Made by a program: the position numbers and the translations under genes
Notes under the pieces: generated by a model
Database searches by the model: none
What the model was told of the DNA's origin: nothing
What the model saw: the letters and a program-made list of their open reading frames with translations, nothing else
Assembly (NCBI GenBank): GCA_018971305.1
Contig: JAGXBC010000001.1
Coordinates: 173,956-237,955 of the forward strand
DNA from: Patescibacteria group bacterium
GTDB taxonomy: Bacteria; Patescibacteriota; Minisyncoccia; UBA6257; 2-01-FULL-56-20
Reading direction: 5' to 3'
Length of the DNA stretch: 64,000 nt
Part shown: in pieces, positions 5,935 to 52,566 of the stretch
Layout: the number at the start of each line of letters is the position of its first letter
Position numbering within the stretch: the stretch's first letter is position 1

Positions 5935-6615
5935 CTATTGTTGCCTACTTATCGTCCTATAGTAAGTAGACGGCCCACCATTTCCGGCCCTTTCTATGAG
6001 CCCCCGGGAAAGCAAATTTTGCATATCGTAACGCAACGTTCTTTCGCTAACACCAGGCAATATACCCTGTATTTCCTTCAATCGGCAATTGCCGTTTTGC
6101 CGTATTCTTTCCAATATTGCCGATTGCCGCATTTCCGATTTAATATAGTTGCCGCTTCCATTATCTAATTGACCATAATCAGAGTTATCCCGATTAACAG
6201 TGTTTTCAACGGTTAAATCTTTTGCCGTATTATCTTCAGTTGAATTAGTAATAGATGATTTATCGTATCCGGAAAATATATCATCCAATTTTATCTCATC
6301 TATTTTTGCCGGATTATCATATTCGGCAATTGCCGAATTTAGACCATATAATTCAGATATCACCTTATCAGAATTTGCCGGATGGAAAACCCCGACATCA
6401 GCTCCAAATCTTAGCAATCTTTCTAGGTTATCAGATGCCGAAAACATCGCAACCCGATCTTCGGAGGAAAATGCCCCCAAGACGATAAGCGCCGCGTCTT
6501 CCGCTTTATCCCTAAAACTTCCACTATTGACAGAGGACGCCATTCTCCAGACGGCATAGGCAACTTCATATGCTTTCTTTGTTAAAAACTTATCCTGATT
6601 ATTTATCCTGGACAT
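5935..6615 (-). CDS. Hypothetical protein with C-terminal DeoR-type winged-helix HTH
   Basis: 226-aa ORF. The C-terminus (RQSAILERIRQNGNCRLKEIQGILPGVSERTLRYDMQNLLSRGLIER) looks like a DeoR/wHTH DNA-binding domain. The N-terminal part is unrecognised. Confidence 0.6.
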   Translation of the reverse strand: MSRINNQDKFLTKKAYEVAYAVWRMASSVNSGSFRDKAEDAALIVLGAFSSEDRVAMFSASDNLERLLRFGADVGVFHPANSDKVISELYGLNSAIAEYDNPAKIDEIKLDDIFSGYDKSSITNSTEDNTAKDLTVENTVNRDNSDYGQLDNGSGNYIKSEMRQSAILERIRQNGNCRLKEIQGILPGVSERTLRYDMQNLLSRGLIERAGNGGPSTYYRTISRQQ

Positions 6616-26438: not shown

Positions 26439-26522
26439 GCCCTCCTGGTGGAATTGGCAGACACGTACGCTTCAGGTGCGTATGTCCGCAAGGACGTAGA
26501 GGTTCAAATCCTCTGGAGGGCA
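26439..26522 (+). tRNA. tRNA-Leu (anticodon CAG), type II with long variable arm
   Basis: GCCCTCC...GGAGGGCA acceptor stem, anticodon loop TTCAGGT, variable arm TGTCCGCAAGGACGT and T-loop GGTTCAAATCC. Close to E. coli tRNA-Leu(CAG). No CCA is encoded. Confidence 0.9.
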
Positions 26523-28556: not shown

Positions 28557-29549
28557 ATGAAACCAATTCTTGTTTCCGGCATCCAGACTTCAGGCCGATT
28601 GCACCTTGGCAATTATTTGGGCGCCTTAAAAAATTTTGTTGACCTGCAAAATTCGGGAAAGTACGATTGTTATTTTTTCTTAGCCGACTTACATTCATTA
28701 ACCGAGGCGTTCAATCCAGAAGATAAACATAAACAAGTCATTGAACTGGCCGCGGATTTTCTGGCTGCCGGCCTGGACCCCAAGAAATCCGTTATCTTCC
28801 AGCAATCGCAGGTCCCGGCGCATACGGAACTCGGATGGATTTTCAATACGATTACGCCATTCGGAGAATTAAACAGGATGACACAGTTTAAAGAGAAATC
28901 CGACGCGCAAAAAGAAAATGCGAATGTCGGGCTTTTAACTTATCCCACTCTGATGGCCGCCGACATTCTTTTATATGACGCCAAATTTGTGCCGGTTGGC
29001 GACGACCAAAAACAGCATTTGGAACTCACGAGAACTATCGCCCGTAAATTCAACGCCAAATTCGGCGAAACTTTCACGGAGCCACAACCACTATTTACAG
29101 CAGCCACTCGGGTGATGAACCTTGGCGAACCGGAGCGAAAAATGTCCAAGTCGCGCTCGCATCCACAAAACGTGATTTTCGTTGACGACTCGCCGGAAGA
29201 AATTTCCGCCAAAATAAAATCCGCCGTAACAGACTCCGGCTCGGAGGTTAAGTACGACATCAAAAACAAACCCGCAATAAGCAACTTGCTTACTATCTAT
29301 TCCGCCCTAAGCGGAGAAGCCATCCCTAAACTGGAGAAATATTTCACAGGGAAAAAGTATTCAGAGTTCAAAGTTAAGCTTGCAGAGCTGATATCCGATT
29401 ACTTCGCGGATTACCGCAAGAAGAAAAAGTTATTACTCGCCAAACCGCAGACACTTATAACAACGCTCAAATCCGGTTCAGCCAAAGCGGCAAAAGTTGC
29501 CGACAAAAAGATACACGAAGTTAAAAAAATAATAGGATTGGCGATTTAA
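28557..29549 (+). CDS. trpS: Tryptophan--tRNA ligase
   Basis: 330 aa. Contains GIQTSGRLHLGNYLGA (HIGH-type motif) and KMSKS. Confidence 0.95.
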   Translation: MKPILVSGIQTSGRLHLGNYLGALKNFVDLQNSGKYDCYFFLADLHSLTEAFNPEDKHKQVIELAADFLAAGLDPKKSVIFQQSQVPAHTELGWIFNTITPFGELNRMTQFKEKSDAQKENANVGLLTYPTLMAADILLYDAKFVPVGDDQKQHLELTRTIARKFNAKFGETFTEPQPLFTAATRVMNLGEPERKMSKSRSHPQNVIFVDDSPEEISAKIKSAVTDSGSEVKYDIKNKPAISNLLTIYSALSGEAIPKLEKYFTGKKYSEFKVKLAELISDYFADYRKKKKLLLAKPQTLITTLKSGSAKAAKVADKKIHEVKKIIGLAI

Positions 29550-32500
29550 ATCTTCCTTACAGCCAACCAGGAATCCGCGCCGTTAACCTTCGTTTCCGCC
29601 TCCGCTTCAAATTTTTCCGATTTTTTATATTCTATCGCTTCGGCTCCGACCTCAACTTTCAAAACTTTTTCGTACTTGTAGATTGCGAGACGCACTTCCG
29701 CCGGCAACTGGGCCATCAATATCATTTTATCCTTCGGCTTAAGCCCGGATTTTTGCCGCAGCTCCTGAACGGCCCTTATTATCTCCCGCAATATACCCTC
29801 TTCGCGCAGTTCCGGCGTGACAACGGTATCCAGTTCAATTTCTTCCTTAAATCTGGCACTGAAAACAACTTTCTTAATATTCACCTCTTCTGCTAAAATA
29901 CCAAGCAATTCTTTGGGAATCTTCAGCTTTCCGGTTTTAACCCTGAGTTCACCGAGAGGCTGACGGACTTTTATTCCCGCCTCCGCCCGCTTGGCCAATC
30001 CCAAACTAGCCAAACGCCTCACTTCGGCCATTCCTTCCAGTAATTTAGAATTTTGAGTTTTTAATTTTGGTTTTGTCTCCGGCCAATCTTCCAAATGAAC
30101 TGATTCCTGCGTTCCGTTAAGTTCTCCGTAAAGTAATTCCGAAAAGAATGGTGCGAAGGGAGCTGTTAGTTTCGCCGTTTCACGCAGAACCAAGCCGAGT
30201 GTGGCGCAAGCCGAATCAAAATCCTTGGCGCTCTCCGGTTTTTGCAAGCGCCGGCGCGAACGGCGGATATACCAGCGCGACAGATCGTCAACCAACTTCT
30301 CTATAACAAGCGCGGCTTCTCTTATTTCGTATTTATCCAGGTGCTTTGTGGTATCGGCAACAGTTTCTCCGAGCCGAGACAGAATCCATTTGTCCAGAAC
30401 ATTGGTCGAGGATGGAATTTTATCTCCCGAACTTTTCTCGCTCGCATATGTTTTATAAAATACCAAACTGTTCCAAAGAAGCATGTGCATCCTGCGGTAT
30501 GTTTTCGAAATCTCGTTCTCGTCAAAATTTTTTGTCTCGCCCGGAGGATTCACGGTATAGAAATACCAGCGGACGGCATCAACTCCGTATTTATTGATAA
30601 CCTCCCAGGGGTCAACTATATTCCCTTTGGACTTGGACATTTTCTGCCCGTGCTTATCGTTTATCAGCCCCAAAGAAACAACGTTCTTATATGGCGCCGG
30701 GTATCCCAAAGATGTAGCAACTGCAAGCAGGGTGTAAAACCATCCTCGCGTCTGATCCATTGCCTCCGAAATATAATCTGCCGGATAAGCGCGGCTTTTG
30801 TCTATAGCATCCTCATTCTCAAAAGGATAATGCTGCTGAGCGAAAGGCATTGAGCCGGAATCAAACCAGACGTCAGCTACTTCTTTGACCCGTCCTGTTC
30901 TCGCGCCGCATTGCGGGCAGGCAATATGGATACCATCGGCATATGGCTTGTGCAGGTCTATAACTCCAGTACCATCACGGGGCACTATCTTTAGAGTTAA
31001 CTCTCTTGTTTCAGCTACGCCGATAAAATCCTGGCCACGGCTTATTTTTTCCCGTATAGCGCGTTTTTCATCCCATGCTTCCGCCGCGTGCGTAAGCATC
31101 CAGATCGGATACTCATGGCTCACGAGCAGGATATTCTTGCCGCGGTATTTTTTTTCCAATTCCTGCAAAATTTCCCAAACCCGACTGCGCAAATCGCGCA
31201 GGGACTCGCCTCCTTCCGGCTTGCCCTCAAACTTTGATTCGTATGTGGGAAAAAGCTTATGGTAGCGGCTATCACGGCCCCCCTGAAGCATTGAACCCAA
31301 ATCTACCTCGCGCAGACGTTTGTCGAAAACTACTTTTTTGACGCCCAATGCCTCCGCCGCAATCTCGGCTGTTTCTTTTGTCCGGATTATGTCCGAAGAA
31401 ACGATGACGTCTATTTTTTTTCTGCTGCTTTTTAGTTTCTGCAAAAAATTTTTCGCCGACTTTTCCGCGAGCGAGCGGCCGATAACGGTCAAAGTGTTGT
31501 CTTTAGACCAACCGGAATCAATAAAGTGTTCGGCGTTGCTTTTCGCCTCTCCGTGCCGCATAACCCAATAATTATTCCTGGAACCTCCGGCAAGCTTACT
31601 GAGCTCGTCAATGCCTCCCGCCACTTCGCAGTGATTGCATTTTTTGCATTCCCAGATCGGTAACGGCGTTCCCCAGAACCGTTCACGGGAAAAATTCCAA
31701 TCTTTAACCTCACGCAGCCATTCGCCGAAACGCCCCTGTTTTACGTATTCCGGCGTCCAATTGATTTTATTGTTATTGGCTATAAGCTGCTTCCTTAAAC
31801 CGCTCATGGCTACGAACCAGGAATTTCTTGCGTAATATAGAATTGGCGTGCCGCACCGCCAGCAGTAGGGATAATCATGCTTGTAGGGAAGAACTTTCAG
31901 GAGCGAACCGCGCTGTTTTAAATGTTCAACGATGCCAGCCTCGGTTTCCTTGGACTTCGCGAACAGGCCGGAGAAACCAGAAACGTCCTTAGTGAACTTC
32001 CCAACTTCATCAACCGTGTGATACCTCGGTAAGCCGACTTTAAGTCCCAGCTGATAGTCATCTTCGCCGTACATAACCGCAGTGTGGACTACCCCGGTTC
32101 CCTCTGTCGTATTAACAAAATCGGCGTCGTAAACCTTGTACGAACTTGGCGAACGCAATGCCGGAATTTCAAAAAGCGGCTCGTAGCTCAGGCCGATAAG
32201 TTCGTTCCCCTCAAAAATCTCCCTCAGGTCGGGGGCGGAACCAAAAATAGCGGGATTATTCTTAACGGCTTCCTCAGCTACAATCCAACGCTCTATTTTC
32301 CCGTCAATCATCTTCTTCAGTACGGCGTATTTGATGTTTTTACCAACGGCCAAAGCCACATTTCCTGGGAGCGTCCACGGCGTAGTCGTCCAGGATAAAA
32401 CATACGTATCATCTCCCGCCGAGAAATATCCGCCGATTTTCTGCCCCCTCTTCAATTTGAATTTTATATAAACGGAGTCATCAGTAGTTTCTTTGTAACC

Positions 32501-33076
32501 CAAAGCAAGCTCGTGCGAAGAAAGCGACGTGCCGCAGCGCACGCACCAGGGAACTACCTTATGTCCCTTATAAAGAAGTTTTTTTGTCCAAAAGCGCTTT
32601 ATTATCCACCAAAGAGTTTCTATGTAGGAGCTTTCGTAAGTTATGTAAGGGTCTTTCAGGTCCAGCCAAAAGCCCATCCGTTTTGTGAGGCGCTCCCATT
32701 CGTCTTTGTATTCCCAGACGGACTCGCGGCATTTTTTATTGAAGGCCTCAACGCCGTAGTTTTCAATGTCCTTTTTCGTTTTCAGGCCCAATTGTTTTTC
32801 CACCCCTATCTCCACGGGCAATCCGTGCGTGTCCCAGCCGCCTTTTCTCGGAACCAAATAGCCCCGCATCGCCTTGTAGCGTGGGATTATGTCTTTGAAG
32901 GCACGAGCCAGAATATGGTGCACGCCCGGCCTGCCGTTAGCAGTTGGCGGACCCTCGTAAAATATGAACTTTTTAGCGCCTTTCCGCTTAGCGAGAGTTT
33001 TTGCAAAAATGTCGCTTTCGTTCCAAAATTTCAAAACTTTTTCCTCCTCCTTGGGAAGATTGAATTCTTCGGGCAT
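29546..33076 (-). CDS. ileS: Isoleucine--tRNA ligase (type 2) carrying an inserted histidine-phosphatase domain
   Basis: 1176 aa. Contains PPTANGRPGVHHILARA, the editing-domain segment TTPWTLPGNVALAV, KMSKSKGN and WFDSGSMPFAQ. It appears longer than the type-2 IleRS lengths I recall (from memory, not checked), and the roughly 190-aa insert between the two CxxC knuckles can account for the excess. Confidence 0.95.
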   Translation of the reverse strand: MPEEFNLPKEEEKVLKFWNESDIFAKTLAKRKGAKKFIFYEGPPTANGRPGVHHILARAFKDIIPRYKAMRGYLVPRKGGWDTHGLPVEIGVEKQLGLKTKKDIENYGVEAFNKKCRESVWEYKDEWERLTKRMGFWLDLKDPYITYESSYIETLWWIIKRFWTKKLLYKGHKVVPWCVRCGTSLSSHELALGYKETTDDSVYIKFKLKRGQKIGGYFSAGDDTYVLSWTTTPWTLPGNVALAVGKNIKYAVLKKMIDGKIERWIVAEEAVKNNPAIFGSAPDLREIFEGNELIGLSYEPLFEIPALRSPSSYKVYDADFVNTTEGTGVVHTAVMYGEDDYQLGLKVGLPRYHTVDEVGKFTKDVSGFSGLFAKSKETEAGIVEHLKQRGSLLKVLPYKHDYPYCWRCGTPILYYARNSWFVAMSGLRKQLIANNNKINWTPEYVKQGRFGEWLREVKDWNFSRERFWGTPLPIWECKKCNHCEVAGGIDELSKLAGGSRNNYWVMRHGEAKSNAEHFIDSGWSKDNTLTVIGRSLAEKSAKNFLQKLKSSRKKIDVIVSSDIIRTKETAEIAAEALGVKKVVFDKRLREVDLGSMLQGGRDSRYHKLFPTYESKFEGKPEGGESLRDLRSRVWEILQELEKKYRGKNILLVSHEYPIWMLTHAAEAWDEKRAIREKISRGQDFIGVAETRELTLKIVPRDGTGVIDLHKPYADGIHIACPQCGARTGRVKEVADVWFDSGSMPFAQQHYPFENEDAIDKSRAYPADYISEAMDQTRGWFYTLLAVATSLGYPAPYKNVVSLGLINDKHGQKMSKSKGNIVDPWEVINKYGVDAVRWYFYTVNPPGETKNFDENEISKTYRRMHMLLWNSLVFYKTYASEKSSGDKIPSSTNVLDKWILSRLGETVADTTKHLDKYEIREAALVIEKLVDDLSRWYIRRSRRRLQKPESAKDFDSACATLGLVLRETAKLTAPFAPFFSELLYGELNGTQESVHLEDWPETKPKLKTQNSKLLEGMAEVRRLASLGLAKRAEAGIKVRQPLGELRVKTGKLKIPKELLGILAEEVNIKKVVFSARFKEEIELDTVVTPELREEGILREIIRAVQELRQKSGLKPKDKMILMAQLPAEVRLAIYKYEKVLKVEVGAEAIEYKKSEKFEAEAETKVNGADSWLAVRKI
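30992..31579 (-). other. Histidine phosphatase (PGAM/branch-1) domain embedded in IleRS (about aa 500-695)
   Basis: YWVMRHGEAKSN (RHG motif), VSSDIIRTKETAEI, LREVDLG, GGESLRDLRSRV and ILLVSHEYPIWML (second His). The domain is flanked by WECKKCNHC and IACPQCG. Confidence 0.75.
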
Positions 33077-33103: not shown

Positions 33104-34072
33104 CTATTCAAAAAATCTGCTGCGTATTTTATGGGTATTGCCATGGCTCAAAAGTCCAAGATAAGCGTTAATCGTCGCTGGCGCTGGGTTGGCTATTACC
33201 ATCTTTAACATTCTTCTTCTCGTCGTTGTCCGAAAAACACGGTGATCAGGAAAATTTATCCACCCCAAAAAATCAACTCCGGACGCAATGGTATTTATGA
33301 AAATTTTATTTGGATGAAGCGTAAGTCGCAATTTATTTTCCAAAAATTCTTTTATTTTTGGAACTAGAGATTCCAGCAATCCGCGGTTCTCCGAGAAAAT
33401 AACGAAGTCGTCCGCATAACGTATATAGTGCCTTGTTTTCAGTTTGTGCTTCACAAACTGGTCAAACTCGTTCATATAAACATTTACAAAGAGTTGTGAA
33501 GTGAGGTTGCCGAGCGGTAAACCTTGTCCAGGCGCGCTTGATGAAAAACTCTCGATAACTCTTTCCAGGAGCCGCAGCGTATCAGCGTCTGGGATATATG
33601 AACGTAGAATATCAAGGAGGACGGCGTGGTCGATGTTGGCAAAAAACTTTTGAATGTCACACCTGAGAACCCAGGAGGTACGCGTATTGTTCTTACTAAT
33701 AATGCGGGCGAACGCGCGAAAACGATTCATTGCGGCATGCGTTCCTTTTCCGACTCGGCATGAGAACGAATCAGCTATGAAAGTTTTATCGAAGAACGGA
33801 TAGAGCACCCGGTAGATGGCGTGATGGAGTAAGCGGTCGCGGACGGTTGCCTTGTGGATATTCCGCGGTTTCGGGTCGCAGATGTTGAATGCTTGATACC
33901 CACCGTGTCGGTACGCACCGTTCAAAATATCCGCGCGAAGTGATAGAATGTTATCCATAAGGCGCGATTGGAACTCCTGCACATCACGTTTCCCGCTCTT
34001 GCCGCGCAAAAATTCCCTCCAGGCCTCAAGCAGGTTTTCCACGCTTATGATTTCCTCAAATTTATGAACCAT
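33104..34072 (-). CDS. DGR-type reverse transcriptase
   Basis: The track ORF is 33104..34264. The likely start is MVHKFEEIISVENLLEAWREF at 34072 (323 aa). RT motifs present are NICDPKPRNIHKATVRDRLLHHA, LGNLTSQLFVNVYM (the DGR-typical xGxxxSQ) and YIRYADDFVIF. No maturase or endonuclease domain. Confidence 0.9.
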   Translation of the reverse strand: MVHKFEEIISVENLLEAWREFLRGKSGKRDVQEFQSRLMDNILSLRADILNGAYRHGGYQAFNICDPKPRNIHKATVRDRLLHHAIYRVLYPFFDKTFIADSFSCRVGKGTHAAMNRFRAFARIISKNNTRTSWVLRCDIQKFFANIDHAVLLDILRSYIPDADTLRLLERVIESFSSSAPGQGLPLGNLTSQLFVNVYMNEFDQFVKHKLKTRHYIRYADDFVIFSENRGLLESLVPKIKEFLENKLRLTLHPNKIFINTIASGVDFLGWINFPDHRVFRTTTRRRMLKMVIANPAPATINAYLGLLSHGNTHKIRSRFFE

Positions 34073-34103
34073 CTTAATTTTCACAATAAAAATTTTCAAG
34101 TAA

Positions 34104-34460
34104 CTCCCCCCCCCCCGACACATCACGCTTCCTATCATCCAACACCTGGTAGCGGCGTACAAAACCTGGCATGAATTTCTGCCGCATGTACCCAAGGATG
34201 CGAGATACTCGTTAGGAACTAAGGTCGACGCTTCGTTTATAGAAACGATTGAAGCGGTATTCACCGCAAGCTATCTCAGTAGAGAGAGTAAACTTCCTTA
34301 TCTCGAAAAAGCTGCCGCGAAACTGGACATGGTTAAATTCTTTCTCCAGATAATCTGGGAAGTCAAGGCGCTCGACAATAAAAAATATATTACACTCTCG
34401 GAAAAGCTGGATGAAATAGGCAGAATGCTCGGCGGATGGCTTAGGAAAATGTCTACTTAA
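34104..34460 (+). CDS. avd: Avd-like four-helix-bundle accessory protein (open frame without ATG/GTG/TTG start; possibly joined to ATG 34064 across the C11 tract)
   Basis: Absent from the ORF track. My plus-strand translation is ...RHITLPIIQHLVAAYKTWHEFLPHVPKDARYSLGTKVDASFIETIEAVFTASYLSRESKLPYLEKAAAKLDMVKFFLQIIWEVKALDNKKYITLSEKLDEIGRMLGGWLRKMST*. The FPK-x-x-RY-x-LG and EIGxMLGGW pattern is typical of Avd / 23S-IVS four-helix-bundle proteins. Confidence 0.7.
   Translation, partial: LPPPRHITLPIIQHLVAAYKTWHEFLPHVPKDARYSLGTKVDASFIETIEAVFTASYLSRESKLPYLEKAAAKLDMVKFFLQIIWEVKALDNKKYITLSEKLDEIGRMLGGWLRKMST
34106..34116. repeat. C11 (G11 on minus strand) homopolymer tract at the avd 5' end / RT 5' leader
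   Basis: Read directly: taact ccccccccccc gaca. The tract separates the ATG-containing frame (ATG 34064) from the conserved avd frame by one nucleotide. Confidence 0.95.
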
Positions 34461-34503
34461 ACCATTCCGCCGGACATCGCCCGTTGTTTTCATTTGCTGC
34501 CAA

Positions 34504-34624
34504 TTACTCGCGACGCGACCGTTGCGATTGAAGTCGTTGTCAAGCCAGTTCCAGTTCAGGTACCAGCGCTCGCCGTTCTGATTGAGGTAGGGAACGTTCC
34601 GGTTGCCGTTCGCGTTCAGCACGA
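34504..34624 (-). repeat. DGR template repeat (TR)
   Basis: The minus strand reads gtgctgAACgcgAACggcAACcggAACgttccctacctcAATcagAACggcgagcgctggtacctgAACtggAACtggcttgacAACgacttcAATcgcAACggtcgcgtcgcgagtaa. It contains nine AAC and three AAT codons in the VR-equivalent frame and pairs with 34964-35084. Confidence 0.85.
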
Positions 34625-34885
34625 ATGTGCGCAAGGCCGTCCGGGCCACCATCCTTCGAGTCACAAACAAAAACCATACTCTCGGGATTGTATCGTATTC
34701 GGAATTTTGAATTCCTTAGCCTCGCACACCAAGTAGCAACAATTATGAAGCGATTAACGAATGCACGCTAGGAGAAAACCCGTCCTCCCCCATTCCGGCA
34801 GACGCCATCGCGGAATTCGATGCGCACAACCTTAGCCGTGCGCATAATATCTACTATCCATAAGGATTATATCAAAAAAATTTAA

Positions 34886-34909
34886 TGGGCCCTAACGAAT
34901 TAGGGCCCA
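34886..34909 (-). terminator. GC-rich UUCG-tetraloop hairpin about 50 nt downstream of the VR / target stop (terminator and/or DGR target-recognition hairpin)
   Basis: The minus strand reads tgggccctaa-ttcg-ttagggccca, a perfect 10-bp stem, followed by ttaaattttttt. Confidence 0.6.
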
Positions 34910-34959
34910 AGGGTTGAGGGTTCAAGCGACACAAAGGATCTGAGTCACAAGAACCAATG

Positions 34960-35580
34960 CTACTTGCTCGCGACGCGACCGTTGCGATTGAAGCCGCAGT
35001 CAAGCCAGCTCCGGCCCAGGTACCAGCGCTCGCCGTTCCGACTGAGGTAGGGAACGTTCCGGTAGCCGTTCGCGTACAGCACGACCAAACCCGGAAAATC
35101 GATGTAAACTTTTCCGAGAAGGGACATGAATACGGGGAATTCATCCTGGTGCTCAACAAGCCAAACGGCCTGCTGGTAACCCAGGACAAGATTCCGGCGG
35201 GACACGAGCCTGCGCTCGTATTCGCTGCCAACGATAGACTTCTCGTCAGAACGCAACAATGTGCCAAGACGGAGAATAACTTCATCGGTTGGCGAAGAGT
35301 CGGACTCGATTTTTTCGATCTGAGAGAACGCCCTGCGGAGTTCCTCGAGTGTCGGCTGCTTCAGGGCTGGAATCCGAACGGCGACATCTTCCATCGTCTT
35401 CCAGAATTCCAACATCTTGATCTCGGCGTTGCCGAGATAGATGTCACGGACGCCTGAAAGGTTGGTGCCGGTTGAAAGCCATTTTACAAAATCGGGCGTG
35501 CAACCATTCCGCTCAAGCGCATGATCGAATTCTGCGGCTTGGCGAGCAAACATGACGGGTTGAGACTTGTCATTAGGCAT
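34960..35580 (-). CDS. DGR variable (target) protein, 206 aa, VR at the extreme C-terminus
   Basis: ORF with a GGAGG RBS (aaaggaggacatgtcATG). The C-terminal ...VVLYANGYRNVPYLSRNGERWYLGRSWLDCGFNRNGRVASK* is encoded by the VR. No signal peptide or TM segment is visible. Confidence 0.85.
   Translation of the reverse strand: MPNDKSQPVMFARQAAEFDHALERNGCTPDFVKWLSTGTNLSGVRDIYLGNAEIKMLEFWKTMEDVAVRIPALKQPTLEELRRAFSQIEKIESDSSPTDEVILRLGTLLRSDEKSIVGSEYERRLVSRRNLVLGYQQAVWLVEHQDEFPVFMSLLGKVYIDFPGLVVLYANGYRNVPYLSRNGERWYLGRSWLDCGFNRNGRVASK
34964..35084 (-). repeat. DGR variable repeat (VR)
   Basis: Aligns to 34504-34624 at offset 460. Inside the core there are 11 mismatches, and 10 of them fall at TR minus-strand adenines (7 A>G, 3 A>T). 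Confidence 0.85.
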
Positions 35581-35661: not shown

Positions 35662-35725
35662 TTTGCCATAGCAGAAAACTATCCGATTGCCTAGAGCTTA
35701 TCGAAAGGCTTTCTGCTATGGCAAA
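35662..35725. repeat. Perfect 16-bp inverted repeat with 32-nt spacer between argS stop and DGR target gene
   Basis: tttgccatagcagaaa (35662-77) pairs with tttctgctatggcaaa (35710-25). Confidence 0.9.
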
Positions 35726-35774
35726 TGTAAATAAATCAGGTTTTCAAAGTACGCTACAATTATACACCATATTA

Positions 35775-37475
35775 CTATATTCTGTCAATAGCAGTGATTC
35801 CCAATAAATTCAGCCCTTTTTCTATGATTTTCGCCGTTATATTAATAAGCCCAAGAAGCGCGCTCCGCCGACTGGCGGATTCTTCTTTGAGTACCGGCGT
35901 GGTTTCGTATAAACGGTTAGCCAACACGGCCAGCTTATAAAGATAGTTAGCTAGGTTGCTCGTCTGCAGTGTTTCCCCACTTCGCGCCACTTCGTCGGGA
36001 AATTCAAAAATTTTCCGAGCGAGCGCAAGTTCAACATCAGAATTTAATAATGTAAAGTTCTTGCTTTTAGGTTTTAGAGCTTGGGACTTTCTTAAAATAC
36101 TCTTAAGGCGGGCATACGTGTACTGCAAATACGGCCCGCTGTCTCCGGAAAAATCCAGCATTCTTTTCCAGTCAAAAACGATGTCGGTTGTGCGTCCCTC
36201 CCGCAAATCATTGTATTTCAAGGCTCCAACGGCAACCGCCTCAGCGATTTTATCTTTTTCTTTAGCCGATAATTCTTTATTTTTTTCTTCAACAATCTCC
36301 CTCGCCAGCTTGATAGCCTTACCTAAAACCTCTTTAAGTAATATGGTCCTCCCTTCGCGTGTAGCGAGCTTTTGGCCGCTCTCCCCTAGAACCAAACCGT
36401 ATTTAACGTGCTTGAGTTCAACCCCATCGGCCAATCCAAGAATATTAGTTATGGCGAAAAGCTGTTCAAAGTGCAGAGATTGTTCGTTGCCCACAACATA
36501 TAAAATTTTCTCCGGCTTATATTTTTTGACACGGTATTCAATATTCGCAATATCGCGCGTAAGGTAAAGGGATGCTCCATCCGCTTTTTCTATTAACGCC
36601 GGAGGCAGATTGAACTTATCTAGTTTTATAACTATCGCGCCCTCGCTTTTTACGGCGACGCCGTCTTGCACAAGGCGCGAAACAAGCGGCTTCATATCTT
36701 TCTCAAAAAAGCTTTCGCCTTTCCATTCGTCGAACTCTACACCGAGCTCTTTATATGTTCTCTCGAATTCTTTAAGCGATTCTTTTTTAAACCATTGCCA
36801 AAGCTTGCGGTTTTCCTTATCGCCTTCTTCTAATTTTTTGAATTCTTCCTGGCCCTCCAGCTCCAATCCCGGGCGGGACTTCATCTCGTCGTGAAAGCGG
36901 ACGTAGAGCTTCTGCAATTCCTCTATTGGTTTTTCTTCTATCTTTTTCTTATCGCCCCACATTTTATAGGCGGCGATAAGTTTGCCGAACTGCGTCCCCC
37001 AGTCGCCCAAATAATTCCAGCGGATAACTTTATATCCCAGTGATTCAAAAACATTGGCAAGCGCCGCGCCGATTATCGTTGTCCGCAAATGGCCCACGTG
37101 CATCATCTTCGCGATATTCGGCTGAGAATATTCAACGATAACGGTTTTGCTTTTTCCAATACTTCTCTCGCCATATTTTTTTATATTCTTGGTAACCATG
37201 GCCAATTCGTTTTGCAGCGCTTCAGGTGAAAACCAAAAGTTTATAAATCCCGGCGCAGCGGCTTCAACTTTTTGGAAAAACCCAGCCGGCGCAGCGGCAC
37301 TAATTTTCTGCACCAATTCCCTGGCCAGTTCAAGAGGATTTTTCTTTTCCCGCTTAGCCAAAACCATAGCCAAGTTCGTGGAATAATGGCCGAAGTTTTC
37401 TTGTTCCGGAACTGTAACGCTAAAATCTCTGCCATCGGAAAACTCGGATAAAATTTTTATTATCTTATCTTTCAT
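35775..37475 (-). CDS. argS: Arginine--tRNA ligase
   Basis: The ORF is 35775..37502. The probable start is MKDKIIKIL. Contains SQPNIAKMMHVGHLRTTIIG (HIGH-type motif), the DALR anticodon-binding C-terminus and the terminal ...ITAIDRI. Confidence 0.95.
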   Translation of the reverse strand: MKDKIIKILSEFSDGRDFSVTVPEQENFGHYSTNLAMVLAKREKKNPLELARELVQKISAAAPAGFFQKVEAAAPGFINFWFSPEALQNELAMVTKNIKKYGERSIGKSKTVIVEYSQPNIAKMMHVGHLRTTIIGAALANVFESLGYKVIRWNYLGDWGTQFGKLIAAYKMWGDKKKIEEKPIEELQKLYVRFHDEMKSRPGLELEGQEEFKKLEEGDKENRKLWQWFKKESLKEFERTYKELGVEFDEWKGESFFEKDMKPLVSRLVQDGVAVKSEGAIVIKLDKFNLPPALIEKADGASLYLTRDIANIEYRVKKYKPEKILYVVGNEQSLHFEQLFAITNILGLADGVELKHVKYGLVLGESGQKLATREGRTILLKEVLGKAIKLAREIVEEKNKELSAKEKDKIAEAVAVGALKYNDLREGRTTDIVFDWKRMLDFSGDSGPYLQYTYARLKSILRKSQALKPKSKNFTLLNSDVELALARKIFEFPDEVARSGETLQTSNLANYLYKLAVLANRLYETTPVLKEESASRRSALLGLINITAKIIEKGLNLLGITAIDRI

Positions 37476-37557
37476 TACCATTAAGAATAATATAAAAAGC
37501 AATAATTGTCGCAGAAAACAAAAACCGCCGCTTTTATGCGACGGTGGATTCCCAAGG

Positions 37558-37866: not shown

Positions 37867-38310
37867 ATGAAAACAATCGCGGAAAACCGCCGGGCGCGGT
37901 TTGACTATGAAATATTGGAAACAATGGAAGCGGGCGTGGAGCTGCGCGGTTTTGAAGTTAAAAGCGCCAAAGCAGGAGGTTTTAATCTGGCTGGAAGCTA
38001 CGCTATTCTGAGAAACGGGCAGGCCTGGCTTATTAACTCTCAAATTCCACCATATCAGCCCAAAAACACTCCGGATGGCTATGATCCCTCCCGCTCTCGC
38101 CGCCTGCTCTTACACACATCGGAAATCATCTCCTTGGCAGGAAAACTTAAAGATAAATCGGTTCACCTGATTCCATTACGTACTTATATAAAAAATAATT
38201 TGGTAAAGATTGAACTCGGACTTGCGCGTTCACGAAAAAAATCCGACAAGAGGGAACTTATTAAAAAGCGCTCCGCAGAAAGAGAAATGATGCGGGCTAC
38301 CTCAAGGTAA
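37867..38310 (+). CDS. smpB: SsrA-binding protein SmpB
   Basis: 147 aa. Contains IAENRRARFDYEILETMEAGVELRGFEVKS and a basic C-terminal tail. Confidence 0.95.
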   Translation: MKTIAENRRARFDYEILETMEAGVELRGFEVKSAKAGGFNLAGSYAILRNGQAWLINSQIPPYQPKNTPDGYDPSRSRRLLLHTSEIISLAGKLKDKSVHLIPLRTYIKNNLVKIELGLARSRKKSDKRELIKKRSAEREMMRATSR

Positions 38311-41732: not shown

Positions 41733-42049
41733 GGTGGAGATGGGCGGAATTGAACCGCCGTCTAAGGATTGCGCCGCTGAACCATCTACGAACGTATTTC
41801 AGTTAAGAACTGAACAAAAGCGATTCTAATTTTCGCTCCAATGCAGAATCATCCATCGGAACTACGCCTCCTTATATAAGACCGGTATTAACCTAAGAGG
41901 TCCAGATTAGCCGATCCTCCGGTGTTACGCGTAAGCGAATGCCGGAGCCGCAACTTTTGAGTTGGCAGTTATTGTTTTTTCGCGAGTTTAACGAGTCCGC
42001 CCTCGGTCCGCAAATTCAGAACGCATCCTTATCGAAGCCGATCATCCCC
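41733..42049 (-). ncRNA. ssrA: tmRNA (ssrA), about 317 nt, predicted tag ANSKVAAPAFAYA
   Basis: The 5' end GGGGATGATCGGCTTCGA pairs with the 3' end ...GGTTCAATTCCGCCCATCTCCACC, including a G3:U pair. The tag frame is ...aaaaaacaataact GCC AAC TCA AAA GTT GCG GCT CCG GCA TTC GCT TAC GCG TAA (41966..41925), which parallels the E. coli resume context. Confidence 0.85.
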
Positions 42050-52485: not shown

Positions 52486-52566
52486 GGCTTTATTTTTTAA
52501 TTTTATTATCGACTTTTATGTATTTATTATAGCAAAAACGCCCAAATAGCAAAAACCGCCTTCTTG

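Follow-up and report, generated by a model that had tools for sequence, protein, structure and literature searches.

The diversity-generating retroelements (DGRs) of the Patescibacteria (CPR) were reportedly first surveyed by Paul et al. in 2017. They correspond to DGR clade 2 of Roux et al. 2021 (PMC8144416) and to the "B3" architecture of Wu et al. 2018 (PMC5758913). These elements are chromosomal, with a target gene carrying the VR, the TR, an inverted avd gene, and the reverse transcriptase (RT) gene in succession, and their small targets lack Pfam domains. A second point of reference is the DGR of Bordetella phages BPP-1 and BMP-1 (mtd-avd-TR-brt), which shares with the locus described here adenine mutagenesis, a VR at the C terminus of a C-type-lectin fold, and a GC-rich IMH-like element. 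The RNP of the phage DGR requires the RNA that flanks the TR on the transcript (Handa et al., bioRxiv 10.1101/2023.10.23.563531). Also among the closest known systems are DGR variable proteins with C-type-lectin/FGE folds, such as Treponema denticola TvpA. Outside DGRs, contingency loci include poly-G/C tracts in genes of Campylobacter and Neisseria, a poly-C tract in the fim promoters of Bordetella, and a (TA)n tract in the promoter shared by the divergent Haemophilus influenzae genes hifA and hifB.

We analyzed a 64-kb stretch of Patescibacteria DNA (hereafter, the window), in which a DGR cassette is flanked by ileS (29546-33076) and argS (35775-37502). An earlier note on this DNA had described the cassette as inserted between these genes; the phrase is supported as a location and not as an insertion event. 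Few of the relatives have ileS or argS nearby, and genomic context thus varies among them. All four components claimed in that note are present, and the TR/VR pair, the RT, bAvd, and the C-type-lectin-fold target each passed the tests applied. The cassette order (i.e., target gene with a 3' VR, template RNA gene, inverted avd, and RT) is usual for the CPR clade: the TR is followed by an inverted avd that adjoins the RT, as in the B3 architecture, and the source records are Patescibacteria MAGs. The locus is very probably a complete chromosomal DGR of a clade confined to the Patescibacteria. It is an ordinary, routine member of that known clade, in which nothing sets the individual element apart, and as one more CPR DGR it has small value as a catalogue entry. 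Two features shared across the clade, a repeat tract at the avd/RT junction and a structured leader RNA, appear undescribed; neither is mentioned in the CPR DGR literature compared, a body of work that lies apart from the survey of Paul et al. 2017. We propose, at slightly less than even confidence, that DGRs of this clade are phase-variable via the junction repeat and use the undescribed five-helix leader as an RT-Avd scaffold.

The RT gene (33104..34084, minus strand) encodes 326 aa from a GTG at 34084, which is the NCBI-annotated start and is homologous to the MKIQLxHKF start of the relatives, or 322 aa from an ATG at 34072. As claimed earlier, it lies on the same strand as the TR and VR, and its ORF reads LGNLTSQ and YADD, which correspond to the motif-4 [ILV]GxxxSQ and YxDD signatures of DGR RTs. 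The ORF matches Pfam RVT_1 (1.6e-23), and its best PDB match is 8ub7_A (1.1e-46, 163 bits; next match, 6e-21, 78 bits), a 328-aa chain named "Reverse transcriptase" that we take to be the bRT of the Bordetella phage bRT-Avd-RNA work. Identity to the BMP-1 RT is 33% (E=5e-45), and both elements include an Avd. There is a vanishingly small probability that the enzyme is instead a retron, group II intron, or defence (DRT/Abi) RT beside an unrelated duplication. Its top NCBIfam match is indeed a group II intron RT/maturase model, and the NCBI protein name follows this match; however, the score is 143 bits against a cut-off of 300, and all retron, group II, and DRT models in NCBIfam fall far under their cut-offs. 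The wide margin by which 8ub7_A is the closest solved structure, the LGNLTSQ motif, the adjacent Avd, the adenine-specific TR/VR mismatches, and the occurrence of the same cassette in 111 relatives all argue for a DGR RT, and neither intron RNA domains nor an Rfam match was found at the locus.

An independent repeat search recovered the TR (34498..34624, minus strand) and the VR (34958..35084, minus strand) at a constant offset of 460 with 89% identity over 127 nt; the pair and offset agree with the earlier note, and the extent is slightly longer than the 121 nt given there. Over the core (34507-34624), re-alignment on the minus strand reproduced exactly 11 mismatches, 10 of them at TR adenines (7 A>G and 3 A>T) and the eleventh a T>C. 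Substitutions thus affect 10 of the 29 adenines and 1 of the 89 other bases of the 118-nt core (Fisher one-sided p=1.9e-6), which bears out the claimed bias. The substituted VR positions are 35076, 35064, 35042, 35039, 35016, 35015, 35009, 34998, 34997, and 34994 (minus strand). The VR comprises the last 40 codons plus stop of the target gene (ORF 35580..34960), in line with the roughly 40 residues claimed. In this frame the TR reads VLNANGNRNVPYLNQNGERWYLNWNWLDNDFNRNGRVASNW, with 9 AAC and 3 AAT codons and all 32 adenines at codon positions 1 and 2, a design that had been recognized correctly; the VR reads VLYANGYRNVPYLSRNGERWYLGRSWLDCGFNRNGRVASK* (stop included). At its 3' end, the VR carries a GC-rich 14-mer, GGTCGCGTCGCGAG (34967..34980, minus strand; TR copy, 34507-34520), past which VR and TR differ at three of six bases (TR 34506, 34503, and 34501) before similarity is lost after 34498. 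The 14-mer and its diverged flank resemble IMH and IMH*, with a possible function by analogy with phage BPP-1 (PMC5758913). The target gene (34960..35580, minus strand; 206 aa) has an AAGGAGG Shine-Dalgarno sequence upstream, and the confident structural model of its product comprises three N-terminal helices and a C-type-lectin-like C-terminal domain bearing the VR. No signal peptide is evident on inspection of the protein by eye, and the target, a small C-type-lectin-fold protein, is probably cytoplasmic.

The Avd-like gene does lie between TR and RT, as previously noted, but its strand is the plus strand, opposite to that of the RT, TR, and VR, and it stands head-to-head with the RT. This orientation differs from that of the co-directional avd, TR, and brt of the Bordetella phage element. 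The avd body (34122..34460, plus strand) spans 112 codons plus stop from the NCBI-annotated start, an ATC. Its product scores 56.6 bits against Pfam bAvd (cut-off, 40) and 77.1 bits against NCBIfam DivGenRetAVD, slightly short of the cut-off of 80; the latter match covers the whole profile (positions 1-104 of 104). There is no in-frame ATG, GTG, or TTG start for avd in the window because a run of 11 C residues puts the gene one base out of frame with an upstream ATG (34064..34066, plus strand). When the run is C10, this ATG opens a 131-aa avd ORF (MDE2015099.1, 131 aa, in the C10 record); a 112-aa protein is also recorded at NCBI. The ATG is the reverse complement of RT codon 3, and the avd and RT ORFs overlap head-to-head by 9 nt. 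The description of the element as active-looking needs a caveat, since C11 leaves the window avd without a canonical start; in addition, the VR is identical across all five available assemblies of the genome (window included), and there is thus no direct sign of current activity in this element. The NCBIfam Avd score below its cut-off, and the lack of a hairpin and U tract after the TR (see below), also count against this particular element.

Directly 5' of the TR on the minus strand lies a structured RNA domain of ~215 nt (34627..34842), for which RNAalifold predicted five helices from a 60-locus alignment: P1 (34842-34834 with 34831-34823), P2 (34792-34782 with 34779-34769), P3 (34729-34718 with 34638-34627), P4 (34714-34711 with 34705-34702), and P5 (34688-34680 with 34659-34651). 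A conserved unpaired segment, CGAATACGATACA (34701-34689, minus strand), lies within the domain. In the alignment, 96.4% of leader cells are paired, versus 70.8% in shuffles and 38-49% with slid partners, and 34 of 40 leader pairs show compensatory changes; the observed values were reached by none of 500 shuffles. The leader RNA has no Rfam match. Upstream, an extended -10-like element, TTGATATAAT (34866..34875, minus strand), matches the TGnTAnAAT block of the alignment consensus and is likely to drive transcription of the template RNA. Past the TR, a hairpin followed by a U tract occurs within 75 nt in 95 of 100 relatives; it is missing there in the window and in L011, L015, L043, and L067. 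In the window, GGCGGAATGG can alternatively pair with the antisense of the avd C-terminal codons. A stem-loop just 3' of the TR is a flanking RNA element in DGRs (Handa et al., bioRxiv 10.1101/2023.10.23.563531) and a feature of many of them, although not a strictly defining one. The layout differs from that of the Bordetella phage, whose functional flanking RNA is mainly a ~140-nt spacer 3' of the TR, whereas here the large structured RNA is 5' of it; the hairpin and U tract that end the TR RNA of most CPR relatives likewise set them apart from the phage element. The covarying leader is a specific candidate, open to testing, for the RNA bound by a non-phage RT-Avd complex, and an RNA family model with which to detect template RNAs could be built from it.

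We infer every biochemical step of the mechanism by analogy, drawing it from the Bordetella phage element. A discrete minus-strand RNA consisting of the ~215-nt leader and then the 127-nt TR would be transcribed. An RT-Avd complex would bind this RNA, copy the TR into cDNA, and misincorporate opposite adenines. The cDNA would then replace the VR, with the IMH-like 14-mer as the 3' bound, and up to 12 AAC/AAT codons, together with other A-containing codons, would be recoded in the ligand-binding face of the target.

In each of two collections, the matched stretches included at least 469 close RT relatives, almost all of them from Patescibacteria. RT relatives among the CPR DGRs share 60-73% identity. 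The avd gene is head-to-head with the RT in 152 of 153 related loci. A TR/VR signature was found in 111 of the 165 loci retrieved, and 92% of the 2,138 TR/VR mismatches in these 111 loci fall at TR adenines. Some relatives are nearly identical outside the VR: over 6.5 kb, the 21-22 positions that distinguish L029 from L121 and L123 all fall in the VR, and most differences between L107 and L108 are in the VR or just after it. The differences in both groups argue for DGR activity in the clade.

The homopolymer at the avd/RT junction (C11 on the avd strand, G11 on the RT strand; 34106..34116) is the sole G/C run of at least 8 nt in the window. On the avd strand, the run is followed after 5 nt by the avd ATC (34122) and after 11 nt by the first conserved codon of avd; on the RT strand, the RT GTG follows after 21 nt. 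Of 153 related loci, 137 have a G/C run at the junction that is 6-16 nt long, and 10 of the other 16 carry (GT)7-12, (CT)10, or (CTGG)9 at or beside the same junction. About 95% of relatives carry a slippage-prone junction repeat. Its units in the relatives are 1, 2, or 4 nt long and never 3 nt, and 132 such repeats occur in the junction windows, compared with 7 in the ~880 kb outside them. The repeat is absent from five phage DGRs in which avd and RT are co-directional, and none was found in the Bordetella phage locus.

Tract length is also polymorphic. Across ~44 kb, the window differs from four further assemblies of its genome only by having C11 in place of C10; tract length is likewise the sole difference between L059 and L148 (4.1 kb) and between L094 and L095 (2.2 kb), so that three of eight groups with identical flanks (these two pairs and the window group) differ only in the tract, with sequencing error possible. 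We consider it rather unlikely that C10/C11 is a sequencing or assembly artefact in an element that is either constitutively competent or decaying via an avd frameshift. Runs of 10-11 identical bases are prone to error on every platform, and the lengths of the two NCBI contigs are exactly one base apart; an error of this kind would count against a switch. Because the other ~44 kb are identical, the assemblies may represent the same clonal population or possibly share reads. However, C10 appears in three Logan assemblies from three separate runs and in one NCBI record, C11 appears in one NCBI record, and one Logan contig ends exactly at the C run. In the two further identical-flank pairs, as well as in two (GT)n pairs of 99% identity, tract length is the sole or main difference. 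An artefact cannot explain the conservation of the tract, because its presence is kept across assemblies of many independent studies (including RIFCSP and GW2011 MAG records).

The junction repeat has several properties of a contingency locus, i.e., a unit length not divisible by three, length polymorphism, and in-frame and out-of-frame states with an intact ORF (in all GTDB loci checked, avd contains no stop past the tract). We judge the chances to be evenly balanced that it is a contingency (phase-variation) tract gating Avd, and in some relatives the RT, and thereby turning diversification on or off. C10 would allow an ATG-initiated 131-aa Avd, and C11, as in the window, would leave avd without a canonical start; strand slippage between such states would gate adenine-directed retro-mutagenesis and yield subpopulations with diversification on or off. 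In common with known contingency loci, the tract is a short non-triplet repeat at a gene 5' end or between divergent genes, its presence is conserved while its length and even repeat type vary, its length is the only difference between otherwise identical genomes, and both frame states occur with the ORF intact. Known loci differ in that they control a surface antigen or a restriction enzyme, whereas the gated function here would be the machinery of another hypermutation system, with switching predicted from sequence; moreover, the tract is intergenic in many relatives and lacks recognizable promoter hexamers around it.

The intergenic position bears on an unlikely alternative, in which the tract is a non-B-DNA-forming spacer that absorbs or senses negative supercoiling between the divergent genes and couples avd and RT transcription; that length variation is a tolerated by-product, as this would entail, is unlikely to the same degree. 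Triplex DNA can arise from poly(G).poly(C) and (CT)n, and Z-DNA from (GT)n. In about half of the loci, the first conserved Avd codon, 7-11 nt past the tract, is a TTG or ATG (TTG in 33 of 64, compared with 18% of Leu codons elsewhere in avd), and most RTs start 13-21 nt on its other side. In most loci the tract therefore lies between the probable starts, which suits a spacer and counts against a switch; it cannot act by frameshift where it is intergenic in this way. All repeat types are G/C-containing non-B formers, although (CTGG)n is not a classic non-B motif, and A/T runs and (AT)n are absent from the site although the genomes are AT-rich. Less compatible with a spacer are the 35 of 127 non-redundant loci in which a canonical avd start is absent altogether unless the frame shifts, the approximately 25 loci without a canonical RT start after the tract, and several loci with an ATG 3-13 nt before the tract and one base off the avd frame, which is a classic phase-variable layout. 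In addition, no promoter hexamers at usable spacing flank the tract.

In the 127 loci, the upstream ATG shares the avd frame in 34, is offset from it by one base in 58, and by two bases in 34. The in-frame fraction (27%) is near the one-third expected by chance, as a spacer would predict and contrary to expectation for a switch. The commonest state, one base too long, is that of the window and of L107/L108. The latter two have diversified VRs although they are out of frame, again an observation against a switch and one that suits restoration of the frame during expression. It is very unlikely, in our view, that the avd frame is instead restored in expression, by RNA polymerase slippage or +1 ribosomal frameshifting on CCC-C proline codons, with the one-base-too-long state as a programmed low-output setting that limits Avd (itself equally improbable). 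CCC-C is well known to be prone to +1 frameshifting, and RNA polymerase tends to slip on long homopolymers, but the (GT)n, (CT)n, and (CTGG)n tracts that occupy this site in other loci are not known to direct recoding, tract length differs in DNA between otherwise identical assemblies, and the +1 excess is modest in counts that ignore phylogeny.

To our knowledge, the control of DGR activity is largely unknown outside the Bordetella phage. The genomes of Patescibacteria are very small and encode few regulators. If the tract is a true switch, a cell lineage could toggle targeted hypermutation of a binding protein at high frequency without a dedicated regulator. This would account for the many metagenomic DGRs that seem intact but have static VRs, and tract length and frame would provide a sequence-only marker predicting diversifying populations.

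Signals resembling transcription boundaries surround the target gene on the minus strand. A promoter-like TTGACA-18-TATAAT with 12 of 12 matches lies upstream (35759..35788), identified in a consensus scan by sequence match alone, and an intrinsic-terminator-like hairpin with a T run follows the gene (34886..34909).

An independent repeat search of the window recovered a 127-nt repeat pair at 34498-34624 and 34958-35084, with an offset of 460 and 89% identity. On the minus strand, the core of the pair (34507-34624) contains 11 mismatches, of which 10 fall where the 34.5-kb copy has an adenine (7 A>G and 3 A>T) and 1 is T>C; on re-alignment, these counts were exactly those reported in the earlier note, which had described a diversity-generating retroelement (DGR) from the sequence. 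Substitutions affect 10 of the 29 adenines of the core and 1 of its 89 other bases (Fisher p = 1.9e-6). In the frame of the variable repeat (VR), the 127-nt template repeat (TR) has its 32 adenines exclusively in codon position 1 or 2 (in-frame codons include 9 AAC and 3 AAT), and every A substitution between TR and VR alters the amino acid. Alignment and translation also bore out the proposal that the diverged copy encodes the last ~40 residues of the target protein, with the VR corresponding to the last 40 codons of the minus-strand ORF 35580..34960. Both repeats end in a GC-rich 14-mer, GGTCGCGTCGCGAG, beyond which the TR and VR copies part ways; the IMH and IMH* elements of DGRs likewise diverge after a shared end, and the 14-mer may, by analogy, be considered IMH-like. 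The target gene is preceded by a perfect promoter consensus (TTGACA-18-TATAAT, 35759-35788) and followed by a terminator-like hairpin. Its leader, between this promoter and the target start at 35580, contains an inverted repeat (35662-35725; 26-nt arms, 85% complementary) that could form a regulatory hairpin or serve as an attenuator and that gave only spurious miRNA matches in Rfam.

The reverse transcriptase (RT; minus strand, 34072 or 34084 to 33104) carries an RVT_1 domain with the motifs LGNLTSQ and YADD. Its NCBI-annotated start is the GTG at 34084, four codons further upstream (MKIKMVHKF), in agreement with the MKIQLxHKF start found in most RT relatives. Among solved structures, 8ub7_A is the closest (163 bits, E = 1e-46; next RT, 78 bits); we take this 328-aa chain, whose entry name is "Reverse transcriptase", to be the Bordetella phage bRT studied in complex with Avd and RNA. 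Scores against retron, group II, and defense-RT models were all far under the cut-offs. A 319,837-bp contig of Patescibacteria MAG GCA_028865265.1 codes for the same RT protein, and another NCBI record (319,838 bp) has the same genes. No same-species contigs were found in the JGI metagenome collection (top RT identity, 73%). Among the matched stretches, at least 469 RT relatives were present in each of the GTDB genome and JGI metagenome sets, at 60-73% identity and nearly all labeled CPR. We pooled 165 fetched loci, 153 of which had enough flank to judge the orientation of avd, the accessory variability determinant gene; avd is head-to-head with the RT gene in 152 of these. The TR lies between the target and avd in 111 of the 165 loci, with the VR a median of 338 nt upstream, and TR adenines account for 92% of the 2,138 TR/VR mismatches in these 111 loci. 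Because this layout and TR/VR pattern are common to the relatives and the layout was described by Wu et al. 2018 (PMC5758913), the window element is an ordinary member of a known CPR DGR clade.

The clade is active, as near-identical relatives show directly by their recent diversification. L029 (1598-1697) differs from L121 and L123 at 21 to 22 positions, all within the VR, and is otherwise identical to them over 6.5 kb; L107 (1974-2065) and L108, from different assemblies, differ mostly in or just after the VR. For the window element, the earlier interpretation of a full, active-looking DGR was supported, but the VR is identical across two NCBI and three Logan assemblies, with no sign of diversification, and avd here has no canonical start.

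An Avd-like gene is present between the TR and RT, as the earlier note had proposed, but its strand and frame state required revision. Avd is encoded on the plus strand, opposite the RT, in a frame that reads LPPPRHITLPIIQHL...RKMST*; a 152-aa minus-strand ORF (34212-34670), considered as a possible avd on the RT strand, is merely the TR running into antisense avd. The Avd protein matches Pfam bAvd above threshold and aligns with the NCBIfam DGR-Avd profile over its full length, with a score of 77.1 bits, slightly below the cut-off of 80. No ATG, GTG, or TTG occurs in this frame between the preceding stop and the avd body. A run of 11 C (34106-34116; G11 on the RT strand), the sole G/C run of ≥8 within the 64-kb window, stands between an ATG at 34064 and the Avd frame, which are offset by one base. 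The run is C10 in the other NCBI record and in three contigs from Logan (SRR32006840, SRR32006849, and SRR32006850), and this state yields a 131-aa Avd, the first 9 nt of which overlap the RT start head-to-head. Run length is the only difference among the assemblies over all comparable sequence (~44 kb), and sequencing error may account for this 10/11 difference taken alone. The 112-aa Avd had no exact match to any contig on record. An ATG complementary to RT codon 3 was rejected as a general avd start, being in frame in ~6 loci versus ~18 and ~24 in the other frames (70-locus GTDB set). The SRR32006850 contig (L083) ends right after its G10 run (locus end, 6465-6475), consistent with branching of the assembly graph or a fall in coverage at this point.

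Across the clade, 137 of 153 loci have a G run of 6 to 16 nt (mode, 10) no more than 140 nt upstream of the RT. The 16 loci without a G run include six with (GT)7-12, one with (CT)10, and one with (CTGG)9 at the same position; among these 16, L037 has (GT)8 adjoining the avd start and L141 has an interrupted run, G5AG4. The 150-nt junction windows of 150 loci contain 132 such repeats, versus 7 in the remaining ~880 kb, and no repeat of this kind is present in five phage DGRs whose avd and RT are co-directional. Tract length differs in three of eight locus groups with 100% identical 800-nt flanks, and the loci in each of those three groups are otherwise identical over 2.2 to 13 kb. Two 99%-identical pairs also differ in the tract, i.e., (GT)9 versus (GT)8 and (GT)10 versus (GT)7. 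Always occupied by a slippage-prone repeat, whose type and length vary, the junction site bears the hallmark of a contingency locus. This variation at one site counts against a sequence-specific role for poly-G: an RNA element of that kind is ruled out by the other repeat types at the same site. A Shine-Dalgarno sequence for the RT is ruled out by the distance to the RT start (mostly 13 to 21 nt), and a sigma-70 promoter with the tract as spacer was rejected, as neither visual inspection nor a scan gave consistent hexamers. In a literature search that did not cover Paul et al. 2017, no paper was found linking DGRs to a homopolymer or simple-repeat tract or to Avd phase variation. The junction repeat is a clade-wide feature for which we found no earlier description, and its function is inferred.

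The tract is always open in the Avd frame, encoding PPP, HTHT, RERE, or ASQP, and lies 2 to 7 codons ahead of the first conserved Avd residues. Of 127 non-redundant loci, 34 have an in-frame upstream ATG whose reading frame runs open into the tract; in 58 loci such an ATG is off by one base and in 34 by two. No canonical avd start of any kind is found in 35 of the 127, and in several loci an ATG 3 to 13 nt before the tract is exactly one base out of frame. These observations favor a frame switch. Other features argue against such a switch as the general mechanism. The first conserved Avd codon is TTG or ATG in 35 of 64 loci, with TTG making up 18% of Leu codons elsewhere in avd. This codon lies 7 to 11 nt beyond the tract, and most RT starts lie 13 to 21 nt on the opposite side, so that in many loci the tract is the center of a 35- to 50-nt divergent intergenic region. 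Moreover, ~25 loci have no canonical RT start after the tract, and in L107 and L108 avd is one base out of frame, yet the VRs are diversified. The best reading is that a hypermutable tract would gate Avd, and sometimes the RT, by frame where an ORF crosses the tract, as in the window genome, and by leader or spacing effects in other loci. Less likely rivals are that the tract is a non-B-DNA spacer sensitive to supercoiling, or that slippage of the polymerase or ribosome recodes the avd frame.

The gap between VR and TR is tightly conserved in length (interquartile range, 325 to 358 nt) and contains conserved blocks. In an alignment of the RNA 5' of the TR (A3), a conserved extended -10-like box, TTGATATAAT (34875-34866, minus strand), is followed downstream by five helices (P1 to P5) backed by 60 diverse loci (34627-34875 in the window, minus strand). 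Helix cells are paired in 96.4% of cases versus 70.8% when shuffled and 38 to 49% with partners slid, compensatory changes occur in 34 of 40 helix pairs, and the covariation score is 0.77 versus 0.27 when shuffled and 0.13 to 0.19 with partners slid; none of 500 shuffles attained the observed values. A 12-bp long-range helix closes 2 to 3 nt ahead of the TR, and an unpaired, invariant-looking CGAATACGATACA lies between P4 and P5. Rfam gave no match to the template-RNA region beyond spurious miRNA matches on a hairpin. This five-helix domain is likely the RT-Avd scaffold of the clade. Handa et al. (bioRxiv 10.1101/2023.10.23.563531) reported that, in the phage element, TR-flanking RNA wraps around RT-Avd, and predicted that many DGRs, CPR ones included, have stem-loops 3' of the TR; since just 40 nt upstream of the TR were examined in that study, the large 5' leader RNA, a clade-wide feature, looks undescribed.

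On the 3' side, a GC-rich hairpin with a U tract occurs ≤75 nt after the TR in 95 of 100 relatives (L004-L075 loci), and may act as a terminator, bind Avd as a stem-loop, or do both. Its prevalence indicates that the template RNA is a discrete transcript and rules out TR-RT co-transcription as a general rule. The hairpin and U tract are absent after the TR in the window (34400-34497), L011, L015, L043, and L067, and co-transcription is possible in the window, where the segment after the TR can instead base-pair with antisense sequence of the LGGW codons at the C-terminal end of avd.

No phage or mobile-element genes were found near the DGR, which lies between ileS and argS in an ordinary housekeeping context; ileS or argS is nearby in only ~10% of relatives, and the position beside these genes is not conserved. 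The 1176-aa ileS product (29546-33076, minus strand) has a histidine-phosphatase domain (PF00300, phosphoglycerate-mutase-like) between two tRNA-synt_1 segments, which is an unusual fusion. The window also contains a tmRNA gene (tag ANSKVAAPAFAYA) with smpB a few kilobases off (41733-42049 and 37867-38310), tRNA-Leu(CAG) at 26439, and tRNA-Arg(CCG) at 52566. Among the relatives, the 6.7-kb loci L027 and L119 are identical except for three substitutions within 22 nt (L027, 1003-1024), ~740 nt upstream of the annotated VR, a cluster that could reflect a second variable site or have arisen by chance. One genome, MAG CAWINB01 (Doudnabacteria), carries two DGR cassettes of the clade (L051 and L070), both of which contain a G11 tract; in L070, runs of (AG)7 and C9 also occur 1.6 to 1.9 kb downstream of the RT start.
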